Source: a bacterium (GTDB lineage Bacteria > Patescibacteriota > Minisyncoccia > UBA6257 > JAGOQP01). From it: a stretch of DNA of 56,852 nt. Location: positions 1-56,852 of the forward strand of contig JAJXZH010000006.1 in NCBI GenBank assembly GCA_021780155.1, given 5' to 3'. The notes beneath the pieces were generated by a model. It saw only the letters and a list, made by a program, of their open reading frames with translations. It had not been told where the DNA came from and did no database searches. The position numbers and the translations under genes were made by a program. Positions 1 to 40,931 of the stretch are shown in pieces (positions within the stretch are counted from its first letter, which is position 1; the number at the start of each line of letters is the position of its first letter).

Positions 1-116
1 TTATTAAGCTGACTTAAATATTTCATAAGATTTTTACTAATCTTTTTTTAAATACAATATCTAAATAATCCGATTCCCATACCACTCATAAAATATCCTG
101 AACGGAATATTTTATG

Positions 117-187
117 AGCGGGTAACGGGAATCGGACCCGTGTCTAAACCTTGGGAAGGTCTCGTTCTACCACTGAACCATACCCGC
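117..187 (-). tRNA. tRNA-Gly (anticodon CCC)
   Basis: Reverse complement folds as a cloverleaf. Acceptor GCGGGTA/TACCCGC, D arm GTTC-AGTGGTA-GAAC, anticodon arm AGACC-TTCCCAA-GGTTT, T arm ACGGG-TCCGATT-CCCGT, discriminator T. No encoded CCA. Confidence 0.9.
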
Positions 188-3325: not shown

Positions 3326-3364
3326 AAATCTATCAAAGTATCAAAGTCCGACTTCCTTAGAAAT
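3326..3364. repeat. REP family B, degenerate copy B1
   Basis: AAATCTATCAAAGTATCAAAGTCCGACTTCCTTAGAAAT. It is 38/39 identical to 4243-4281 and shares the arm CGACTTCCTTAGA with the 29-nt palindromes at 6467 and 7208. Confidence 0.8.
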
Positions 3365-4242: not shown

Positions 4243-4281
4243 AAATCTATCGAAGTATCAAAGTCCGACTTCCTTAGAAAT
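4243..4281. repeat. REP family B, degenerate copy B2
   Basis: A 39-nt direct repeat of 3326-3364. It lies between the convergent peptidase and pilin genes. Confidence 0.8.
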
Positions 4282-4309: not shown

Positions 4310-6388
4310 TTATTTTACACATGCGAGATTGTGTGTAGCATTACAATATGACACATTAGAGGTACCATTAGTGATTAAAGTTGGTCCTATACTACCCGAT
4401 GTACTACTTGTCCATCCGGAACACTCAAAATCTCCCCCTTGATAAGAATATCCTCCTTTTACATAAAAATAATAAACTCCAGATCCAATAAGAGTCACTC
4501 CTGCTACCGCATCTCTTATCCATACTGTATATGTATAAGGATAATTTGTCCCAAGCCTCGCAATTTCATCCCAACTTGCCCAGTGACTGCCCGGATAAGA
4601 GCTATTACAAAGGGAATTTCCCTGTCTAATTCCAAGAGTGGATGACCCTCCAAGAACACCAGTTACTAAGCCAGTATATCCCATCCATGTTGGACCACTT
4701 CCTCCTCCCGCAGCCGCATCAACGTAGGCTTTTGTTGCCGCATCCGTAGAATTTACCGGAGTTCCAAGATTGGTTATCGTATTGTTGTTTAACGAAAGAG
4801 TCGTTGTGGTAAGAGTTAATTCATCAGCTCCAGTTCCCACATTAAAAAATCCTAAGTTGGGCGTGTTTCTCGAGGCAATTAACCACTGTCCATAATTGGA
4901 GGCAACATTATTCTGATAAAGTCTAAGCACTGTTGAATTTGTGCTTCCGGAAGGTGTGTACACGCCAATAGTTGATGTTACAGAGAGAGGATCCGCTGGT
5001 GTTGTTATCCCAATCCCGACGTTGCCTTGTAATATTGTTTTTGTGATACTTGTATTTCCTAATGTCACAGAGTTTGAGCCATTACCAATTGAACTTGCTC
5101 CAATAACTATCTCATTTGTATCTCCATCCGCCAAGGGAGAAGCATTATATCCTTCATAAACCGAATTGGTAGAAGTTTGATTACGAGTTGAGCCATTTGC
5201 GATATACATACCAGCTCGCATCCCATTAGCAGTGTTGTAGTAGCCAGTAGTGTTGAAGTAGAGAGCATATATTCCATTAGCAGAGTTACCGTAGCCAGTA
5301 GTGTTGGATTGGAGAGCTTGCGTCCCATTAACAGTGTTGCTGTTGCCAGTAGTGTTGTAGTAGAGAGCATATAATCCATTAACAGTGTTGCCGTAGCCAG
5401 TAGTGTTGGAGTAGAGAGCGCCTACTCCATTAGCGGTGTTATTGATGCCAGTAGTGTTAAAGAAGAGAGCATTGTATCCATTAGCAGTGTTGTAGTAGCC
5501 AGTAGTGTTGGATTGGAGAGCGCCTACTCCATTAGCGGTGTTGTAGGAGCCAAGATAAGTTGAGCCAACTGCTCCAATTGAACTTTGTCCACCTCCTCCG
5601 ATAAATATGTTATATCCATCAGAATTTGCTCCTTGGTATGTTGAAATGAGAGCGTTTGTGCCATTAGTATTTACATTTATATTTCCTGAAACATCTAATT
5701 TTTGTCCGGGATTTATCGTCCCAATTCCAACGTTGCCTCCGATAGTTAAATTTCCAGAAAATGCCCCATTAAGCCAGCGGGACGAAGGATTAGCACCAAC
5801 ACTGTAGGCATTGTCAGTATTCGGTAATAAATCAGAATCAAACGTTGCGGCATTAACTCGGGCAACTGCCGTTCTTAAAGCACGAGAAATTGTTGTTCCT
5901 GCGGCTTTTTGGACCGCTGAAGCGGCAATATCAATCTGGACCGTATCTTTTCCGGGCGCTTGAGATATTTTTTTAAATTGCAAAGAATCTATATTAATAC
6001 TGGCTGAAGTTATTGACTGTGGAGAATTTGTTCCTTGCTGAATATAAACTTGTCCGTTGGAAAGATAGACATAAGTTGGGTCATTGATTAAATTCGGCAT
6101 CCTTAATTTCAAGGTTGAACTGGCAACTCCGGCGTTCATATCAATAACGCTTGAATCGGTTACCAACCGCTGGATTGTTTGAGTAACAAAACCCAACTGC
6201 CCGGAAACATCAGTCATCGCCGATTCCTGAACTTGAGTTTTGGTGACGGTAGTTAAAATGCCGACAGCGATTCCCGAAACCGCCCCTAAGATAGCAATAT
6301 AAATTAAAAGCTCAATCAAGGAAAATCCTTTTTGAGATTTTGATGTTTCAGTTATTTTTATTTTAATGTGATTGAAAAAATTAAACAT
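4310..6388 (-). CDS. type IV prepilin-like protein fused to tail-fiber-like repeat adhesin domain
   Basis: Classic prepilin leader and methylation motif: SQKG|FSLIELLIYIAILGAV, with Gly-1, Phe+1 and Glu+5. It has six to seven 17-aa repeats NTANGxxALxxNTTGxx and a TDAATKAYVD motif. The C-terminal domain carries four Cys. Confidence 0.8.
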   Translation of the reverse strand: MFNFFNHIKIKITETSKSQKGFSLIELLIYIAILGAVSGIAVGILTTVTKTQVQESAMTDVSGQLGFVTQTIQRLVTDSSVIDMNAGVASSTLKLRMPNLINDPTYVYLSNGQVYIQQGTNSPQSITSASINIDSLQFKKISQAPGKDTVQIDIAASAVQKAAGTTISRALRTAVARVNAATFDSDLLPNTDNAYSVGANPSSRWLNGAFSGNLTIGGNVGIGTINPGQKLDVSGNINVNTNGTNALISTYQGANSDGYNIFIGGGGQSSIGAVGSTYLGSYNTANGVGALQSNTTGYYNTANGYNALFFNTTGINNTANGVGALYSNTTGYGNTVNGLYALYYNTTGNSNTVNGTQALQSNTTGYGNSANGIYALYFNTTGYYNTANGMRAGMYIANGSTRNQTSTNSVYEGYNASPLADGDTNEIVIGASSIGNGSNSVTLGNTSITKTILQGNVGIGITTPADPLSVTSTIGVYTPSGSTNSTVLRLYQNNVASNYGQWLIASRNTPNLGFFNVGTGADELTLTTTTLSLNNNTITNLGTPVNSTDAATKAYVDAAAGGGSGPTWMGYTGLVTGVLGGSSTLGIRQGNSLCNSSYPGSHWASWDEIARLGTNYPYTYTVWIRDAVAGVTLIGSGVYYFYVKGGYSYQGGDFECSGWTSSTSGSIGPTLITNGTSNVSYCNATHNLACVK
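5213..5550 (-). repeat. coding tandem repeat, 51-nt period (17-aa NTANG..AL..NTTG units)
   Basis: Units begin CCATTAGCAGTGTTG... on the plus strand every 51 nt from about 5223. Confidence 0.85.
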
Positions 6389-6450: not shown

Positions 6451-6458
6451 CCCCCCCC
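6451..6458. repeat. C8/G8 homopolymer tract upstream of the pilin-adhesin gene
   Basis: cccccccc in an AT-rich intergenic region. It lies about 35 nt upstream of a TATAAT (6413-6418, minus strand) that precedes the ATG at 6388. Confidence 0.9.
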
Positions 6459-6493
6459 AAGAAATCAATCTAAGGAAGTCGGACTTCCTTAGA

Positions 6494-7195
6494 TTATTTA
6501 AAAACCACAGTTTCCAAATCACCCACATCTCTTTCTTTGAGCCATTTGATCATTCTCTTGCGGTAATTTTCTGGTCCGTCAAAAAATTTTGTTAAAAATT
6601 CTCTTTGCGTTACTGAGGGAAAGTTTCTAATTCCTATATAATCTCGATAACTGCTCCAGCGATATTTTTCTAAAAATTCCGATGCCTTTTTATAATTTAT
6701 GACTTTTTCCCCCCGCCATTCAATTCCAGCCACATCAAGAGGATTAAGATGAATATAATAAGGAAGATGGATAAGATGAGATTCGCTTTTAATTTGAACC
6801 GACTTATATTTTCCCTGAAACAATGGACCAACTCGTCTATACTTTTTATTGAAGTAGTTTGTGTATCCGGTTCCCAATTTCCTTATAAATTCGGTGATTC
6901 CGTCATCAGTAATTTGTTGAACAATTAGATGAAAATGGTTTGGCATCAAACAAAACGCCATTAATCTGACAAATAATTTTCTCGCCCCTCTTTCAATCTT
7001 CGGAAGTCCGACTTCCTTAGACTTAGATTTACCGAAATAATATGCCAAATTTATGGCAGGATTTTGATCGTTAAACTCAAATAAGTCGTGAACAAATCGC
7101 AAATAATCTTGGTCGTCCAAAAATATTTTTCTCTTCTCTACTCCCCTATTGTAAATATGATATATACCGCCCATTTCTGGTTTTGTGCGCATCAT
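6494..7195 (-). CDS. REP-associated tyrosine transposase (IS200/IS605 TnpA-like, HUH Y1 family)
   Basis: YHIYNRG N-terminal strand, HUH motif MPNHFHLIV, and the Tyr region GYTNYFNKKYRRVGPLFQGKYKS. Confidence 0.8.
   Translation of the reverse strand: MMRTKPEMGGIYHIYNRGVEKRKIFLDDQDYLRFVHDLFEFNDQNPAINLAYYFGKSKSKEVGLPKIERGARKLFVRLMAFCLMPNHFHLIVQQITDDGITEFIRKLGTGYTNYFNKKYRRVGPLFQGKYKSVQIKSESHLIHLPYYIHLNPLDVAGIEWRGEKVINYKKASEFLEKYRWSSYRDYIGIRNFPSVTQREFLTKFFDGPENYRKRMIKWLKERDVGDLETVVFK
6995..7029. repeat. REP family B copy B4, in-frame inside the RAYT CDS
   Basis: AATCTTCGGAAGTCCGACTTCCTTAGACTTAGATT. It encodes KSKSKEVGLPKIE, located between the N-terminal strand and the HUH motif. Confidence 0.75.
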
Positions 7196-7234
7196 CTGTA
7201 AATTATAAATCTAAGGAAGTCCGACTTCAATAGA

Positions 7235-9910
7235 TTAATGACCGTGGCATTTCTTATATTTTTTTCCGCTTCCACACCAGCACGGATCGTTTCTTCCTAT
7301 CTTTCTTGACGCGGACGAACTCTGATTCATGCCCGAATTTGAACTCATATTTACGTCTGTATTTATCCGATTATTATCCGAGTGAATCTGCGACGTCTGA
7401 AATACGTTTGAGACGACCCAATCTTCGGAATTTGAAATTAAATTCTTAAACATATCAAAACTTTCCCGCTTGTATTCAACTAATGGGTCTCTTTGCCCAT
7501 AAGCGCGCATACGCACTGATTCCATTAATGCCTCCAGATTTTCAAGATGATTTGTCCAAAAAATATCCACAGAGGCAATAATTTTTAATCCGGTCTGAAT
7601 GTCTTTTGATGCTTCTTCTATTTTGTTTTTTATTATTTCCGGAAGTTGACCGGACATAATTTTATCCATTTCTTCTTTTGGTAAGTCCTCTTTTTTGTCT
7701 ACAAGTTTTACCGCCAAAAGATAATCTAAAAGAGGAGATTTTTGATCATCCCCGCTTTCGATATTCATCTGTTCCATCTGCAAAATAACTCTATTTAAAG
7801 TATTGACGACAATTTCTTCAATAATTTCTTTGGTTTCTCCTTTTTCTATTTTTTCCAAAATGTTTTGTCTCCTTTTATAAACCGTCTGCCTTTGTTTGCT
7901 TAATACCATATCGTATTCAAGCAAATGATTTCTGGCATCAAAATTTATCCCTTCAACTTTTTTTTGAGCTTCATTTATCACTTTGACTATAATACCCGAT
8001 TCCATCGGTTGATCTTCGGGCAAATTCATAGAAGTCATTAAACTTTTTATTCTGTCTCCACCAAAAATCCTTAACATATCGTCTTCCAGCGACAAAAAAA
8101 ATCTTGTTTCTCCCGGGTCTCCCTGTCTTCCAGAACGTCCTCTTAACTGATTATCTATTCTTCTGGCATCATTCCTTTGAGTGCCAATAACATAAAGACC
8201 CCCCAAATTTTTTATTTTTTCGGCATTCTCCGAAGATGGCGGGTTTCCGCCTAAAACAATATCCACTCCTCTTCCTGCCATATTGGTTGCCAAAGTAACC
8301 GCACTTAATTTCCCGGCTTGAGCAATTATTTCTCCCTCCCTTTCATGATTTTTGGCATTTAATACTTCATGACCGATTCCCGAATTTGAAAAATAAGAAG
8401 ACAATAAAACATTTTCATCAATAGAAGTTGTCCCCACCAAAACCGGCTGGCCCTTTATTTGTCGTTCTTTGACTTCACTTACAATTGCCTTATATTTTGC
8501 CTCTTTGGTTTTGTAAATAAAATCCGAAGAATCTTTTCTTTGGGATGGCTTGTTTGTTGGAACGGTAATAACTTCAAGTCCATACACTTTATTAAATTCT
8601 TCTGCCGAAGTTGCCGCCGTGCCAGTCATCCCGGAAATTTTTTCGTAAAGACGAAAATAATTTTGAATAGTTATCTGAGCAAAAGTTTTTTGTTCGTCTT
8701 GAACTTGAACTCCTTCTTTTGCCTCAATTGCCTGATGAAGCCCTCCGGAATATCTTCTTCCAAACATTAATCTTCCCGTAAATTCATCAACGATAATTAT
8801 TTCATTATTTCCATTAACAGATTTAATGACATAATTTCTGTCTTTAAAAAATAATGCTTTGGCTTTAAGAGATTCTTCAAGATAATGAACAAGTCGCAAA
8901 TTTGTTGAATCGTATAAATTGTCTATATTTAAAATTTTTTCCACTTTGGCAATTCCGTCGTTTGTAATTTGAACCGATTTTATTTTTTCATCAACAATAT
9001 AATCTTTTTCTTTTTCCAAAGATTGAACTATTCTGGCAAAAAGTTTGTAATATTCAGCCGCTTGAGTATCGGGCGCCGAAATAATTAACGGCGTTCTTGC
9101 TTCATCAATAAGAATGCTATCTACCTCGTCAATAATCGCAAAATATGGTTTTCTTTGAACTTGCTGAGCGGAAGAATAAGCCAAATTATCTCTCAAATAA
9201 TCAAAGCCAAATTCCTGATTAGTTCCATAAACTATATCGGCAAGATATGCTTCTTTTCTTGATATTGGCCTTAAATATTCTTTTTGAACTCTAAAACTTC
9301 CGGTTTTGTCCCTTTCATTATCAAGCATTACAGAATCTTCTTTTGATATTTTTTCATTGTCATTTTCCTGCTTGCCGGTAGATACGGTATTTTTTATATT
9401 TTCACTTTGATTCTCTTGCGTATACGCAGAATCATAAATAAAAGCTTGATCATGCACTATACATGCCACAGATAGTCCCAACATATCATATACTTGCCCC
9501 ATCCAAACGGCATCACGTTGCGCCAAATAATCGTTGACAGTAATTATATGAACTCCTTTACCGGTAAGTCCGCGCAAATATGCGGGAGCGGTAGCGGCAA
9601 GAGTTTTTCCTTCTCCGGTAGCCATTTCGGCGATCTTTCCTTCAAATAAAACAATTCCCCCAATAAGCTGAGCATCAAAATGTCTCTGCTTCAAATTTCT
9701 TTTGGCAGATTCCCTAATCAAAGCAAACGCTTCGGTAAGTGCGTCTTTTAAATCTAGATTTCCTTCTTGGATTTTGCTTTTAAGATTTGAGCTCCTTTCT
9801 TTAATCTCTTTACCACTTAAAGAAATAAGGTCTTTTTCAAAAGCATTTATTTTCTCAATTTCGTCTTTGTATTTGTTTATGGGAGAAAATATTTTTTTGA
9901 ATATGGACAT
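7235..9910 (-). CDS. secA: preprotein translocase ATPase SecA
   Basis: Walker A MATGEGKTL and DEAD-like IIDEVDSILIDEARTPLIIS. The C-terminal zinc finger CWCGSGKKYKKCHG is present. Confidence 0.97.
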   Translation of the reverse strand: MSIFKKIFSPINKYKDEIEKINAFEKDLISLSGKEIKERSSNLKSKIQEGNLDLKDALTEAFALIRESAKRNLKQRHFDAQLIGGIVLFEGKIAEMATGEGKTLAATAPAYLRGLTGKGVHIITVNDYLAQRDAVWMGQVYDMLGLSVACIVHDQAFIYDSAYTQENQSENIKNTVSTGKQENDNEKISKEDSVMLDNERDKTGSFRVQKEYLRPISRKEAYLADIVYGTNQEFGFDYLRDNLAYSSAQQVQRKPYFAIIDEVDSILIDEARTPLIISAPDTQAAEYYKLFARIVQSLEKEKDYIVDEKIKSVQITNDGIAKVEKILNIDNLYDSTNLRLVHYLEESLKAKALFFKDRNYVIKSVNGNNEIIIVDEFTGRLMFGRRYSGGLHQAIEAKEGVQVQDEQKTFAQITIQNYFRLYEKISGMTGTAATSAEEFNKVYGLEVITVPTNKPSQRKDSSDFIYKTKEAKYKAIVSEVKERQIKGQPVLVGTTSIDENVLLSSYFSNSGIGHEVLNAKNHEREGEIIAQAGKLSAVTLATNMAGRGVDIVLGGNPPSSENAEKIKNLGGLYVIGTQRNDARRIDNQLRGRSGRQGDPGETRFFLSLEDDMLRIFGGDRIKSLMTSMNLPEDQPMESGIIVKVINEAQKKVEGINFDARNHLLEYDMVLSKQRQTVYKRRQNILEKIEKGETKEIIEEIVVNTLNRVILQMEQMNIESGDDQKSPLLDYLLAVKLVDKKEDLPKEEMDKIMSGQLPEIIKNKIEEASKDIQTGLKIIASVDIFWTNHLENLEALMESVRMRAYGQRDPLVEYKRESFDMFKNLISNSEDWVVSNVFQTSQIHSDNNRINTDVNMSSNSGMNQSSSASRKIGRNDPCWCGSGKKYKKCHGH

Positions 9911-30357: not shown

Positions 30358-30429
30358 TCCGGTGTAGCTCAATGGTAGAGCGGCGCCCTGTTAAGGCGAT
30401 GGTTGTAGGTTCGAGTCCTACCACCGGAG
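30358..30429 (+). tRNA. tRNA-Asn (anticodon GTT)
   Basis: TCCGGTG-TA-GCTC-AATGGTA-GAGC-G-GCGCC-CTGTTAA-GGCGA-TGGTT-GTAGG-TTCGAGT-CCTAC-CACCGGA-G. Confidence 0.92.
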
Positions 30430-30431
30430 CA

Positions 30432-30606
30432 GATACAAAAAATACCCCGTGCGGGTATTTTTTGTATATGTTTTGGAGAGTAAACGGACTCGAATCAGGA
30501 AGGGGCGGAAACCAGAGGGTTTCCGTGCCGGAAATATTAAAACCGAAGGGTTTTAAGGAGCTCCGACGCAAAGTCGGAGCGACGTGAGATTCCTACCACT
30601 GGAGCA
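30432..30606 (+). repeat. tRNA-linked conserved element, copy E1 (hairpin H0 + ~105-nt core + 16-nt echo of tRNA-Asn 3' end)
   Basis: H0 is a 15-bp stem at 30433-30467. The core at 30486-30590 is about 90 percent identical to 32892-32991. The tail at 30591-30606 matches 30416-30431 at 15 of 16 positions. Confidence 0.85.
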
Positions 30607-30671
30607 GAAACTTGACTTATGAGGTCCCTTTATTATATTTTGTAATCAGAACTATCAAAAAGGAGGTTTAT

Positions 30672-31007
30672 ATGGATGACAGATGGTCTTTTGTTGAAGC
30701 ATGCATGACTTACGGTTTTGTCCTTATCGGTCTTAAAAAAAATACCTTACCTTCATTGAAAAAAGATTTTCTCAAGTGTTCGTCAAAATTAAGAAAATCA
30801 ATTTGCAATGATCTTGGAATCTATCCAAAAACAAGTTGGATGAGACTTCTTAAGATGTCAGGAGCTCTTGCTCCACAAAAAAAGTCGGAAATAGAAAAAC
30901 AAGATAAATTATTTCACAAGTCATTCAAAATTTTGTTAAGTAAAGAAACTTCAAAACTATGTGAAGAATTGGATATCATTCGTTACTGGATAACTGGAAC
31001 AGAATAA
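30672..31007 (+). CDS. hypothetical protein (111 aa)
   Basis: Strong SD AGGAGG at 30661-30666, 5 nt before the ATG at 30672. The track start at 30612 is TTG. A terminator follows the gene. Confidence 0.55.
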   Translation: MDDRWSFVEACMTYGFVLIGLKKNTLPSLKKDFLKCSSKLRKSICNDLGIYPKTSWMRLLKMSGALAPQKKSEIEKQDKLFHKSFKILLSKETSKLCEELDIIRYWITGTE

Positions 31008-31346: not shown

Positions 31347-31922
31347 CTACGGGATAGTCGGTCCGGGTCGGACTGAATTGTTGGAGGAGTGCCCACCACC
31401 AGAAGCGGCAGCGGCGATGAGCACCGCCCCAAGTAGAACCCACGGCCAAATGTGATGTTTCTTGACCGTGGGAGCGACTTGCGCTTGCAAGTCGCGCGGA
31501 GCTGTAACTGCTGGAGCAGGTTGAGGAACCTCAATCCGCTCCGTCTGGATAACTAGTCGCTCAACCGGCGCGGGTGCCGGTGGAGCGCAATCACGTTGGC
31601 CGGACAAAAACGGCTGTCCAACCAATGGGTTAGCGCAGTATCGCACATACTGCGCCCTGCCGCCCATCTTGTCGATGACCACCGAAGTTCCGGTGGCCAA
31701 ACGACAGGTGGAAATCGACCCAGAGGCCGATCCCATCCTCACCACCTGTGGGGTTGTGAGAGTTAATAGACACTGCGACGTCCAATTGACGTCGCGCGTC
31801 GTGTCAACCGGGTTGATCCCCAGCCGACACATGGGCACGTTCTCGCCCGCCATCGCCCCAGTTGACTGGAGCGACAGCACAACGAAACACAATGTCACAA
31901 ACATCGTTAGGTGCTTTTTCAT
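31347..31922 (-). CDS. GC-rich secreted, C-terminally membrane-anchored protein of foreign composition
   Basis: SD AAAGGAGGTG precedes the ATG at 31922. Signal peptide is MKKHLTMFVTLCFVVLSLQSTGAMA. It has a Pro/Ala-rich linker and the C-terminal TM helix IWPWVLLGAVLIAAAA. Composition is very different from the neighbouring genes. Confidence 0.6.
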   Translation of the reverse strand: MKKHLTMFVTLCFVVLSLQSTGAMAGENVPMCRLGINPVDTTRDVNWTSQCLLTLTTPQVVRMGSASGSISTCRLATGTSVVIDKMGGRAQYVRYCANPLVGQPFLSGQRDCAPPAPAPVERLVIQTERIEVPQPAPAVTAPRDLQAQVAPTVKKHHIWPWVLLGAVLIAAAASGGGHSSNNSVRPGPTIP

Positions 31923-31991
31923 AAGCACCTCCTTTCTTGAGATCTATCCAAAGAATATCACAAAAATCAAAAATAGTCAATAGGTGATAAA

Positions 31992-32770: not shown

Positions 32771-32841
32771 GGGGTCATAGTTCAATGGTAGAATTGCGGT
32801 CTCCAAAACCGCTGATCTAGGTTCGAATCCTAGTGACCCCG
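32771..32841 (+). tRNA. tRNA-Trp (anticodon CCA)
   Basis: GGGGTCA-TA-GTTC-AATGGTA-GAAT-T-GCGGT-CTCCAAA-ACCGC-TGAT-CTAGG-TTCGAAT-CCTAG-TGACCCC-G. Confidence 0.92.
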
Positions 32842-32842
32842 C

Positions 32843-33039
32843 TGATACAAAAATACACCCTTGTGGTGTAGTTTTTGTATTTGGGTACAATGGATTCGAA
32901 TCAGGAAGGGTCGGAAACCTCGTGGGTTTCCGTGCCGGAAATATTAAAACCGAAGGGTTTTAAGGAGTGAGTAAAACGAACGACGTGAGATTCCTAGTGA
33001 CCCCGCAGATACAAAAATACACCCTTGTGGTGTAGTTTT
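32843..33039 (+). repeat. tRNA-linked conserved element, copy E2 (H0 + core + 15-nt echo of tRNA-Trp 3' end + partial second H0)
   Basis: The core is at 32892-32991. The tail at 32992-33006 is identical to 32828-32842. The duplication extends over 48 nt (32828-32875 versus 32992-33039, 47 of 48 identical). Confidence 0.85.
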
Positions 33040-38738: not shown

Positions 38739-40931
38739 TTATTTAACAACCGGCTGAGCATCTTCCAATTTGAGCGAAAGTAATTTTGAGCTTCCCCCAT
38801 CGTCCATAGTTATTCCATAAAGAACTTGAGCCGCCTCCATTGAAACGCGATTATGAGTTACCATAACAAATTGAGTATCTCCCGAAAAATTTTTGACCAA
38901 ATCGGCAAATCTTTTTGAATTTTTTTCATCCAAAGCCGAATCGGCTTCATCCAAAACCAAAAAAGGAGGCGGACTGACAGAAATCAGAGCAAAAAGCGCC
39001 GCAATGGAAACAAGACTTTTTTCCCCTCCCGAAAGCATTTCCAAGCTGGTAATTTTTTTCTGAGGAATGGAAACTTCCAAATCCAACCCGGCCAAAGATT
39101 CCTGCGGGTCTTCAATTTTTTTGACAATTTCCGGCTCTTCGTTTTCGTTTTTAGATTCGGATAAAATCGATTCTTTTTGAATTATTTTCATTTTGGCCGA
39201 ACCTCCACCAAACATAATTCTAAAAAAATTATTAAATGCTTCATTGACTTTTTTGAAAGAAGAATGAAAATCTTTGGAAATTCTTCCCGAAAGCTCATCA
39301 ATCAGCGACTCTAAATCTTTGGAGGCATTTTTCAAATCTTCCGATTCCTTAACCAAAAAGGAGTGGTGGACTTCAACTTCTTTGGCTTCTTTTATCAACG
39401 CCTCATCTACTTCGCCGATACTGGAAAGTTCGGCTCTCAATCTAAATATTTTTTTCTCCGATTCCATCAGTTGTTCTGAGGAAAAATCGGCATTAAAAGA
39501 GGGGCTTGAGGCCAATTTTTCGTATTGATAAAAATCACCACTAAAAGAACGAATATAATTTTTCAATTCTTCTATTCTATAATCTATTTTTTCACCTTCA
39601 AAAATGGCTTTGGTTTTTTGTTCCTCAAAATTTTTTATTTTTGATCTAAGAGATTCCAATTCAGTGAATGTTTCCTTAAAATTTTTATTAAACTCTTCCA
39701 CGTTCTTTGAAATTTCCATCTCCGATCGTTCTATTTTTTCTATGTCATTTTCAATGTCCTTTAGTAATCCTTCTATTTCTTTCTTTTTTTCGGCCAGATT
39801 TTTATCCTCCGTCGGAAGTTTGGAATTTTTTGGATTTATAATAAAAGACGATTGAGCGATAATATTTTTTATTTTTTCTTTTATTTCCTCCACTAAAGAC
39901 AACGATAAAATTTCAGAAAGTTGATTGTGAATTTCTTTAAGCGCCTTTAATAATTCGGCAGAGGAAACCTCTTGAAATTCAACGGATTTGTTAAGCTGTT
40001 CGATTTGAATTTCTATTTTGTAAATTTCTTTCTCCAAAGAAGATTTTTTGAAAAATAAATCCTTTTTTTCTTTTTGAAGTGTTTCTGTTTTTCCGGAAGG
40101 AAGAGATTTTTCTTCAAGATTTTTTAGATTTTTTTCAATCTCTAAAGATTTTTTGATTATTTCTTTAAGTTGAGATTCAATATCCGAAAGCGGTTTAACG
40201 GTTTTTTCTTTTGCTTCATAAAGATTTTTTATTTTAAACGCGTAAAAATCATTCTCCAAATTTTTTAATTCATTTTCTATTTCAAATCTTTTTTCCCATT
40301 TAGCGGTTTGCCTTTTGAGCATCTTGAGCCGAGGCGCCACTTCCTGGATCATCGCCTCCACCTTTTCCAAATTTATTTTAGTGTTTTTAAGTTTTCTTTG
40401 GGATTCCGCTTTTTTCAATTGAAATTCTCTCAATCCCAAAATTTCTTCCACCATCATAACTCTGTCTGCGGGAAGAGCTCTGACAAAAAGATCGCTCGCT
40501 CCCTGACCAATAATAGTAAGACCCTTTGAGCCCAATCTTATCTTCGCAAAAAAATCTATAACATCTTTTAATCTTACTTCGGTGTCGTTTATAAAATATT
40601 GAGAATTTCCATTTCTACTGATTTTTCTTGAAACCGCGACTTCTTTAAAATCAACCGGCAATTTCCCGGACGAGTTATCAAAAACCAAACTTACTTGCGC
40701 CATAGACATTTTGGACTTTTTGGCAGTACCGGCAAAAATCAAATCTTCAATTTTATCTCCACGAAGATTTTTGGCCTCGCGCTCTCCTAAAAGCCATCTT
40801 ACGGCATCAATAATGTTGGATTTCCCGGAACCATTTGGTCCGACAATTGCCACAATACCCGTCGGAAATTCAAAGACGGTTTTTTGAGCAAACGATTTAA
40901 ATCCGTTTATTTCAAGACGTTTTAAAAACAT
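38739..40931 (-). CDS. smc: SMC-family chromosome partition ATPase, short (about 730 aa) with no evident hinge
   Basis: The N-terminal head is LEINGFKSF...GPNGSGKSNIIDAVRWLLGE. The signature and Walker B region is LSGGEKSL...LVLDEADSALD. The ATG at 40931 has GAAAGGA upstream. Confidence 0.8.
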   Translation of the reverse strand: MFLKRLEINGFKSFAQKTVFEFPTGIVAIVGPNGSGKSNIIDAVRWLLGEREAKNLRGDKIEDLIFAGTAKKSKMSMAQVSLVFDNSSGKLPVDFKEVAVSRKISRNGNSQYFINDTEVRLKDVIDFFAKIRLGSKGLTIIGQGASDLFVRALPADRVMMVEEILGLREFQLKKAESQRKLKNTKINLEKVEAMIQEVAPRLKMLKRQTAKWEKRFEIENELKNLENDFYAFKIKNLYEAKEKTVKPLSDIESQLKEIIKKSLEIEKNLKNLEEKSLPSGKTETLQKEKKDLFFKKSSLEKEIYKIEIQIEQLNKSVEFQEVSSAELLKALKEIHNQLSEILSLSLVEEIKEKIKNIIAQSSFIINPKNSKLPTEDKNLAEKKKEIEGLLKDIENDIEKIERSEMEISKNVEEFNKNFKETFTELESLRSKIKNFEEQKTKAIFEGEKIDYRIEELKNYIRSFSGDFYQYEKLASSPSFNADFSSEQLMESEKKIFRLRAELSSIGEVDEALIKEAKEVEVHHSFLVKESEDLKNASKDLESLIDELSGRISKDFHSSFKKVNEAFNNFFRIMFGGGSAKMKIIQKESILSESKNENEEPEIVKKIEDPQESLAGLDLEVSIPQKKITSLEMLSGGEKSLVSIAALFALISVSPPPFLVLDEADSALDEKNSKRFADLVKNFSGDTQFVMVTHNRVSMEAAQVLYGITMDDGGSSKLLSLKLEDAQPVVK

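Follow-up and report, generated by a model that had tools for sequence, protein, structure and literature searches.

The trailers of two tRNA genes in a 56,852-nt stretch of DNA (contig JAJXZH010000006.1 of assembly GCA_021780155.1; hereafter the window, meaning this stretch at its full length) from a bacterium of the Candidate Phyla Radiation (CPR) harbor two copies, designated E1 and E2, of a small non-coding element whose family, found in Paceibacterota directly behind tRNA genes, is uncatalogued; E1 lies behind tRNA-Asn and E2 behind tRNA-Trp. We identified at least eight distinct copies in at least six Paceibacterota genomes, every one of them in Paceibacterota/Parcubacteria metagenome-assembled genomes (MAGs) and all sharing one layout; seven of the eight are located 3' of a tRNA gene, namely, tRNA-Asn, tRNA-Trp (twice), tRNA-Pro, tRNA-Arg, tRNA-Leu and tRNA-Gly. 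The element is about 110-190 nt long, contains no open reading frame (ORF), and is built on a core of about 100 nt, whose edges GGAUUCGAAU and GUGAGAUUCC resemble the two halves of a tRNA T-arm and flank three hairpins (P1, P2 and P3). After the last block of the core, CGACGTGAGAT, each tRNA-linked copy continues as the sequence of its own neighbor tRNA from T60 onward. A 48-nt duplication at the tRNA-Trp gene of the window is the boundary repeat of such an element. No description of an element of this kind was found in literature searches.

Two copies of the element in the window

All features of E1 and E2 described here lie on the plus strand. The tRNA-Trp(CCA) gene that anchors E2 (32771..32842; found by ARAGORN and matched by the Rfam tRNA model with 70.7 bits) is intact and identical at 72/72 positions to its ortholog at a locus of a related genome (L006). 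The first copy of the boundary repeat (32828..32875, TCCTAGTGACCCCGCTGATAC...GTAGTTTT) opens at T60 in the T-loop of this gene, continues past the tRNA 3' end and extends into a hairpin, H0, as far as its T-tract; the second copy (32992..33039) is identical to it at 47 of 48 positions, the sole mismatch being T/A at the 16th base (repeat family D3 in the window). The two copies part exactly past the T-tract of H0, where TGTATTTGGG stands against ATAGAACAC. An earlier note on this DNA had described both the duplication and the order tRNA, H0, core, tRNA 3' end and partial H0, and the sequence bears out each of them. H0 number 1 (32844..32881), a terminator-like hairpin, is scored as an intrinsic terminator on either strand; behind it come a 10-nt linker, A' (32882..32891), and the core (32892..32991), which matches the covariance model of the family with 118.5 bits and shows covariation in P1 and P2. 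Within the core we recognize the 5' strand of the closing stem P0, GGATTCGAAT (32892-32901), P1 (32912-32919/32925-32932), P2 (32946-32951/32956-32961), a degenerate P3 (32968-32980) and the conserved 3' block CGACGTGAGAT (32981-32991). The displaced tRNA-Trp 3' fragment (32992-33006) and H0 number 2 (33008-33039), which ends exactly after the T-tract, belong to the second copy of the boundary repeat.

The duplication and the arrangement of E1 and E2 recur at 99.99-100% identity in ENA ERZ27236897 and NCBI GCA_027423195.1, independent assemblies of the same organism, and therefore are not an assembly artefact of the window. Several contigs end within the E1/E2 repeats. The lone internal difference from ENA ERZ27236897 in about 9.5 kb is an A>C change at window position 32949, in the 5' strand of P2 of E2, where it would break one A-U pair.

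E1 is anchored by an intact tRNA-Asn(GTT) gene (30358..30430; ARAGORN, and 71.3 bits with the Rfam tRNA model). Its H0 (30432..30467) consists of an A-tract, a G+C stem and a T-tract, forming a 15-pair stem with a T-tail that is terminator-like on both strands; within the window, the outer stem GATACAAAAA...TTTTTGTAT occurs in the hairpins of E1 and E2 only. A linker A' (30468..30485), not demonstrably derived from a tRNA, leads to the core (30486..30590; covariance-model match of 103 bits, fold z = -5.1), composed of the P0 5' strand GGACTCGAAT (30486-30495), P1 (30506-30513/30518-30525), P2 (30539-30544/30549-30554), the P3 hairpin (30561-30579) and the conserved 3' block CGACGTGAGAT (30580-30590). 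Behind it (30591..30611) stand the 3' part of tRNA-Asn from T60 to the discriminator base, with one mismatch (C>T), and the heptamer CAGAAAC, which resembles the start of H0. The fragment, TCCTACCACTGGAGCA, equals the tRNA-Asn 3' part with that one mismatch, corresponding to 15/16 identical positions over TCCTACCAC(C/T)GGAGCA. The second hairpin that would be expected behind the tRNA fragment of E1 is missing except for its first 7 nt, and within a few bases of the end of the fragment begins a good match to a sigma-70-like promoter (30612-30641; TTGACT, a 16-nt spacer and TATATT), pointing into an orphan gene.

The two copies are direct repeats, as the earlier note had claimed: a block of 44 nt is identical in both (30517-30560 and 32924-32967; 0 such blocks are expected by chance), and the pairwise identity of their cores is about 95% outside the variable P3. 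E1 and E2 are far closer to each other than the orthologous copies E2 and L006 are, and therefore E1 was recently copied from, or converted by, an E2-like copy. As for the further proposal that the pair forms a substrate for homologous recombination, such an exchange would be plausible, and no deletion variant was seen.

A conserved fold behind many tRNA genes

E1, E2 and the copy at L006 were ascertained otherwise than by pattern; the other five were retrieved with patterns that fix the edges of the core, namely, a gapped pattern built from the two conserved core edges, which retrieved L012-L015 in other MAGs, and a looser pattern applied to metagenome contigs, which added L018 together with L017, a duplicate of L012, and L019, which was rejected as a chance match. 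The copy at L006-L008 (also matched as L016) lies behind tRNA-Trp and is syntenic with the window, its neighboring protein being 74% identical. The remaining copies are found behind tRNA-Arg(TCT) in L013, tRNA-Leu(TAA) in L014, tRNA-Pro(CGG) in L015, where two units of 195 nt each stand in tandem and are 99% identical, and tRNA-Gly(TCC) in L018; the tRNA genes at L006, L013, L014, L015 and L018 are intact as well. At L012 no tRNA is present in the 290 nt available upstream, and a tRNA-like fragment follows the core. The covariance model revealed no copies beyond the nine known ones in the approximately 220 kb of DNA scanned; its match at 40790-40880 of the window (E = 0.21) lies inside an SMC-like gene and was dismissed as chance. 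A protein search with six-frame translations of all copies, aimed at spurious ORFs over further copies, returned nothing.

The common layout reads tRNA; A-tract/T-tract hairpin; linker of 10-25 nt; GGAUUCGAAU; P1; GUG..GGAAAU; P2 (AAAACC-GANG-GGUUUU); AGRGAG; the variable P3; and CGACGUGAGAU, to which the tRNA sequence from T60 is joined without a gap. The tRNA-derived repeat differs in length among the copies. It measures 16-24 nt in four of them (E1, L006, L014 and L018) and 48 nt in E2; L015 has a repeat of about 55 nt and L013 one of about 92 nt, which includes 78 nt of trailer and extends 45 nt beyond the terminator. In each unit of L015 the tRNA-Pro fragment is split by a hairpin of 31 nt, and in both E2 and L015 the last repeat stops exactly after the T-tract of the hairpin. 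Between the repeats lie 116-164 nt, in which no reading frame is conserved across copies, and a coding element was rejected on this ground. The element always occupies the tRNA strand and is flanked by terminator-like hairpins, and its occupancy is sporadic (two of the six tRNAs in the window, one of six in L014). On the left, the core is bounded by ...TCGAAT, extended to TTCGAAT in 6/8 copies. The sequence to the left of this motif is also common to the copies at tRNA-Trp, tRNA-Pro and tRNA-Asn, and the left flank is therefore not simply target DNA.

The core edges can pair with each other (GGAUUCGAAU/GUGAGAUUCC) with a U.U mismatch and a tandem G.A, thus closing the fold. All paired columns of this closing stem are invariant, only the column of the U.U mismatch varying (C in E1, A in L018), so that the stem is uninformative on covariation. 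P1 and P2, on the other hand, carry the compensatory base-pair changes expected of a structured RNA: eight pairs have changed on both sides in the model-guided alignment, none of 500 shuffles reached the observed values, and shifted registers of P1 and P2 scored much lower in the covariation test.

Comparison of the orthologs E2 and L006 indicates where conservation is concentrated. The hairpin, the linker and the core interior have diverged to about 75% identity with insertions and deletions, whereas TGGATTCGAAT is kept at 11/11 positions and the 31-nt block ACGACGTGAGATTCCTAGTGACCCCGCAGAT at 31/31. The core edges have thus been conserved over the long term and are under purifying selection between these orthologs. 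As the edges are untouched while the interior has diverged, the unit does not look like a decaying scar; and as E2 is conserved in a related species, it is old and stable rather than a fresh insertion.

Known families offered no match. At E <= 10, Rfam 15 hit only the tRNAs and nothing over the core, both in a 5-kb stretch and with E1 by itself, and at the gathering threshold it likewise returned only tRNAs over six related loci. No inverted repeats are formed by the ends of the unit, reckoned from behind the tRNA fragment to GACGTGAGAT. We saw no convincing promoter belonging to the element itself, and the core is separated from the tRNA promoter by a terminator-like hairpin.

Possible origins of the tRNA-linked unit

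Since an intact tRNA gene is accompanied here by a displaced fragment that starts in the T-loop, and the "island" so delimited is free of genes, we read the unit as a miniature, non-autonomous duplicative element. Our tentative preference, which we hold at a little short of an even chance, is that this small ORF-less element is placed behind tRNA genes via recombination or template switching at T-arm sequence. The T-arm-like 3' edge of the core would recombine, or switch template, with the real T-arm of a tRNA gene; the gene would stay intact, and a 3' fragment, displaced or duplicated, would remain at the far end. Having no integrase of its own, the unit would amount to a miniature of a genomic island that integrates at T-loops, and unequal exchange between boundary repeats could generate tandem arrays and keep the repeats alike, including the two of E2. 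Candidate routes are a site-specific recombinase acting in trans, copy-choice at the level of DNA, and an RNA-mediated route; the trans-acting agent might be a tyrosine recombinase, a reverse transcriptase or the replication machinery. The element would then be mobile by courtesy of an enzyme supplied in trans, and its conserved fold may act either as RNA or as folded single-stranded DNA.

The T-loop reportedly figures as a "sublocation" in the classification of tRNA-gene integration by Williams in 2002. An intact tRNA gene with a displaced fragment is a recognized mark of integration into tRNA genes (Islander, PMC4383910). Among the features used there, the intact tRNA is present in our case, and so is the displaced 3' fragment (47/48 in E2, 15/16 in E1, and at five other loci); an integrase inside the island is not, the 116-164 nt between the repeats holding no conserved reading frame, and none occurs among the 40 window ORFs scanned. 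The unit thus resembles the tRNA islands of tyrosine integrases in its intact tRNA, in a direct repeat that starts in the T-loop and may run past the gene end, and in its tandem arrays, but differs from them in spanning only 116-195 nt, in having neither an integrase nor any ORF, in its covarying fold, and in carrying the same core at many tRNA species. With miniature inverted-repeat transposable elements (MITEs) and cis-mobilizable elements derived from integrative elements it shares small size, lack of ORFs, multiple copies and a presumable dependence on an enzyme in trans. Unlike MITEs, it has no terminal inverted repeats, is strictly linked to tRNA 3' ends, is present in low copy number and shows no target duplication of fixed length, its repeat ranging from 16 to about 92 nt.

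Several points weigh against this explanation. No empty site, circular or excised form, or variant lacking the unit was found in the relatives and assemblies compared: the closest relative at tRNA-Trp (L006) carries the element; an 80% relative (L009) has different DNA beside the neighboring gene; in L020, a relative on the tRNA-Asn side, the contig ends at the neighboring gene; and in more distant relatives synteny is lost and no tRNA is nearby. Neither a recombinase nor a transposase nor a reverse transcriptase was detected among the 40 window ORFs scanned, and no such enzyme recurs beside the copies, a XerC/D-like gene being found in L013 only and a lone reverse transcriptase in L015 only. 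The unit has no terminal inverted repeats. A model of the integrase type needs the right tRNA fragment for each element, so a recent jump from tRNA-Trp to tRNA-Asn would not be easily explained by it, and the homology of the H0 hairpins behind tRNA-Asn and tRNA-Trp fits only some insertion models. Stable retention at tRNA-Trp in two species is equally expected of an RNA gene useful to its host. Finally, only eight copies are known, and since five of them were retrieved with patterns that fix the edges, the search itself accounts in part for the edges being invariant. The XerC/XerD-like tyrosine recombinase gene of L013 (6686-7654, minus strand) lies directly upstream of tRNA-Arg, an arrangement seen at this locus only.

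An alternative that we consider unlikely is that the unit is a functional small RNA, the core being a scaffold and the tRNA-derived 3' segment a guide or a mimic. [quoted passage not shown] In the OMEGA RNAs of IS200/IS605 elements (TnpB, IscB), a structured scaffold is followed by some 16-20 nt equal to the flanking target DNA, and in type V-K CRISPR-associated transposons a tRNA-homing "delocalized" CRISPR RNA targets the 3' end of a tRNA gene. The unit is similar to these guides in that its structured scaffold directly abuts a flank-identical segment, 16-24 nt identical to the adjacent tRNA, in the scaffold-then-guide order of OMEGA RNAs; it differs from them in the absence of a nuclease or transposase gene, of transposon ends and of an Rfam match, and in that its fragment is often longer and, in L015, interrupted (for reviews on OMEGA guide RNAs and type V-K transposons, see PMC13565253 and PMC11656645).

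Further observations would suit such a small RNA. In every tRNA gene its target would follow the same T-loop sequence, TTCGAAT; no part is better conserved between orthologs than the fragment together with the scaffold edge next to it (31/31); folding of the tRNA-sense strand agrees with the invariant U.G of the closing stem and with the G.U pairs that L006 and L018 have in P1; and the base changed from C to T in the E1 fragment could still pair (G.U) with the 5' acceptor strand of the tRNA. However, genes for TnpB, IscB, Cas or other nucleases are absent from every copy and its surroundings (a search for TnpB, IscB or TnpA genes in the window and beside the other copies found none), and no Rfam family matched, those of OMEGA type included. 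The terminator-like hairpin between the tRNA promoter and the core, together with the lack of a convincing own promoter, also speaks against this reading, as does the 31-nt hairpin in L015, which disrupts what should be a continuous guide, and the repeats in E2, L013 and L015 are far longer than a guide. Moreover, identity of the fragment to a 100%-conserved tRNA 164 nt away could be maintained by gene conversion without selection.

It is distinctly unlikely, in our view, that the unit descends from a decayed second tRNA copy, that is, from a tandem duplication of tRNA and trailer in which a mobile core entered the T-loop and the 5' two-thirds of the tRNA eroded. A form of this idea had been put forward earlier for E2, where the 20 nt before the core were taken for a tRNA-Trp with its middle deleted. 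The 20-mer in question, GGGTACAATGGATTCGAATC, is indeed located at 32883-32902, and the linker (32882-32891) together with 32892-32902 makes up most of it, but its likeness to tRNA-Trp is not better than chance. By local alignment, the linkers of the eight copies match the 5' part of their own tRNA no better than that of other tRNAs (permutation p = 0.19) and no better than shuffled linkers do (p = 0.20); the linker of the tRNA-Pro copy, TTTGGGATAACGGATTCGAATC, is nearly the same as that of E2, TTTGGGTACAATGGATTCGAATC; and GGATTCGAAT is the family-invariant part of the core closing stem rather than a leftover of tRNA-Trp. Compared with a T-arm, this sequence has one additional A, and it does not change from tRNA to tRNA. 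Likewise, the T-loop of tRNA-Asn reads TTCGAGT, yet E1 carries GGACTCGAAT and not an Asn-specific sequence. Neither ARAGORN nor Rfam called a tRNA over the unit. In acceptor-like pairing of linker with fragment, cognate pairs have only a weak advantage (p = 0.04), which is not relied on here.

What stands of the idea of a degenerate tRNA-Trp holding the core in its T-loop is that the sequence is T-arm-like on both sides of the core, with a true, tRNA-specific T-stem and acceptor 3' strand on the right; what is not supported is the 5' tRNA remnant. The T-stem 5' strand agrees with the local tRNA in L013 (GTTGG) and L014 (GTGGG) and at 4/5 positions in L006; counted over the three T-stem positions left of GGA, the match to the local tRNA is full in two of the eight copies (L013 and L014) and 2/3 in L006. 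The repeat of L013 takes in about 78 nt of trailer, as a tandem duplication would, and insertion into a spare copy would account for the surviving working tRNA. This origin, on the other hand, requires independent duplication, insertion and the same erosion at six or more tRNAs, and no copy with a full-length interrupted tRNA was found among the loci of the family. Disrupted tRNA genes of archaea offer a partial parallel: introns occupy non-canonical positions in the T-loop, and integrating elements have scattered tRNA fragments (PMC4090602, PMC3293823). They share with our unit a foreign sequence in the T-loop, fragments beside a working gene and a spread among tRNA genes, whereas our case concerns a bacterium, a unit without the 5' two-thirds of the tRNA, and a complete tRNA upstream. 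To our knowledge, no splicing endonuclease is known in bacteria.

Two more specific versions may be added, which taken together we regard as very unlikely. In one, the core would be the scaffold of a guide RNA and the tRNA segment, adjoining the universal T-loop sequence, would program an enzyme encoded elsewhere to recognize tRNA genes, making the unit an ORF-less, retargetable homing element. In the other, the unit would be copied through RNA: a reverse transcriptase would start at the 3' end of a primary tRNA transcript that includes the terminator, proceed to the T-loop and there switch to the core RNA, which would account for the repeat's start at nt 60 and, in E2 and L015, for its exact end at the T-tract. 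An RNA route is attractive because the repeats of E2 and L015 end where the primary tRNA transcript would end. The start of the repeat lies one or two bases after A58, where modified tRNA brings reverse transcriptases to a stop. [quoted passage not shown] The tRNA segment of the unit has the same boundary; unlike those sites, it is sense-oriented and continues into the trailer instead of CCA, and so derives from DNA or a primary transcript and not from a mature tRNA. Against an RNA route, the repeat of L013 runs past the terminator, and a reverse transcriptase is nearby in L015 only. The latter, a protein of 400 aa (451-1653), is encoded about 0.5 kb downstream of the tandem units (2131-2520) on the same strand and is group-II-like by NCBIfam, below threshold; a group II intron or a diversity-generating retroelement beside the array was rejected, as there is neither an intron RNA domain nor a pair of template and variable repeats.

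We hold it highly improbable that full-size integrative elements (prophages, plasmids or islands) once entered at the T-loop and later lost their interior, leaving the copies as scars, even though islands are classically marked by an intact tRNA and a displaced 3' fragment that begins in the T-loop (PMC4383910) and the L012 locus, with a core and a tRNA-like fragment but no tRNA within 290 nt, looks like the far end of a larger one. Independent deletions would not yield identical boundaries in eight copies at different tRNAs, nor would scars be expected to show covarying hairpins, edges under purifying selection between orthologs, or a tandem array of complete units. A phage or plasmid origin was also sought directly, with no match either in four pattern scans of 2.9 million viral contigs or by blastn against phage and plasmid collections.

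Least probable of all is an immobile trailer owned by the host, serving as a processing, termination or stability signal co-transcribed with the tRNA, for, while syntenic conservation at tRNA-Trp in two species, the constant tRNA strand and the flanking terminator-like hairpins would suit it, the distribution is sporadic (two of six tRNAs in the window, one of six in L014), the element stands at different tRNAs in different genomes, it is duplicated in tandem and nearly identical in E1 and E2 inside one genome, and a processing signal has no evident need for a 3' copy of the neighboring tRNA. The earlier note had itself named a conserved, immobile trailer with no association with other tRNAs as the finding that would speak against an element; what we found is association with at least six tRNA species in different genomes.

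Genome context and significance

The window is an ordinary piece of CPR chromosome (Paceibacterota/Minisyncoccia, judging from how its homologs are named), encoding, among others, SecA, LepA, MurB, the Pol III alpha subunit, GyrB, ribosomal protein S2 and TrmD. Near its start, the trailer (60..115, minus strand) of a tRNA-Gly(CCC) gene (116-187, minus strand) contains an H0-type hairpin, CATAAAATATTCCGTTCAGGATATTTTATG, followed by AGTGGTATGGGAATCGGAT, and is about 80% similar to the hairpin and linker behind tRNA-Gly(TCC) in L018. Neither a core nor a tRNA fragment is present behind this hairpin and linker, and the trailer could be a core-less relic of, or a landing site for, the element. At L006, some 30 nt upstream of the intact gene, there is a partial copy of the tRNA-Trp 5' part (9460-9545, minus strand; GGGGTCATA ... 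CATTGGTAGAATTGC), which a 20-nt palindrome, CCTGCCTACCGGCAGGCAGG, interrupts; given the 3' fragment as well, tRNA-Trp fragments thus stand on both sides of the gene there, which is not so in the window.

Between E1 and pcm are located the orphan gene (30612-31007) and a gene on the minus strand (31347-31928) with 58% G+C in a window of 35% G+C. The predicted product of the latter begins with a signal-peptide-like N-terminus, contains a Pro/Ala-rich stretch as well as a C-terminal hydrophobic segment, and matches nothing in Pfam or NCBIfam. The syntenic region of L006 has different genes, and the region of the 31347-31928 gene is probably acquired DNA. Two further kinds of repeats were noted in the window. 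The first is a family of units of about 33-39 nt around the palindrome GGAAGTC(C/G)GACTTCC, which occur in both orientations among genes near SecA (3326-3364, 4243-4281, 6458-6496, 6986-7024 and 7205-7237) and are unrelated to the tRNA element; the second is a tandem array of about eight 51-nt (17-codon) repeats (5172-5579) inside an ORF of 692 aa without a Pfam match.

In practical terms, the E1/E2 repeats break assemblies, and they are sites where 2.4 kb including pcm and tRNA-Trp could be lost or rearranged. For the biology of the group, the genomes of CPR bacteria are tiny and have little spare DNA, yet a non-coding unit with a conserved fold is kept at several of their tRNA genes. Should the fold function at the RNA level, the tRNA fragment serving as guide or mimic, the family would represent a new class of RNA tied to tRNA genes. 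If instead the element is mobile, it would represent a new and very small way to colonize tRNA genes harmlessly, and would point to an unknown enzyme acting on T-arms.

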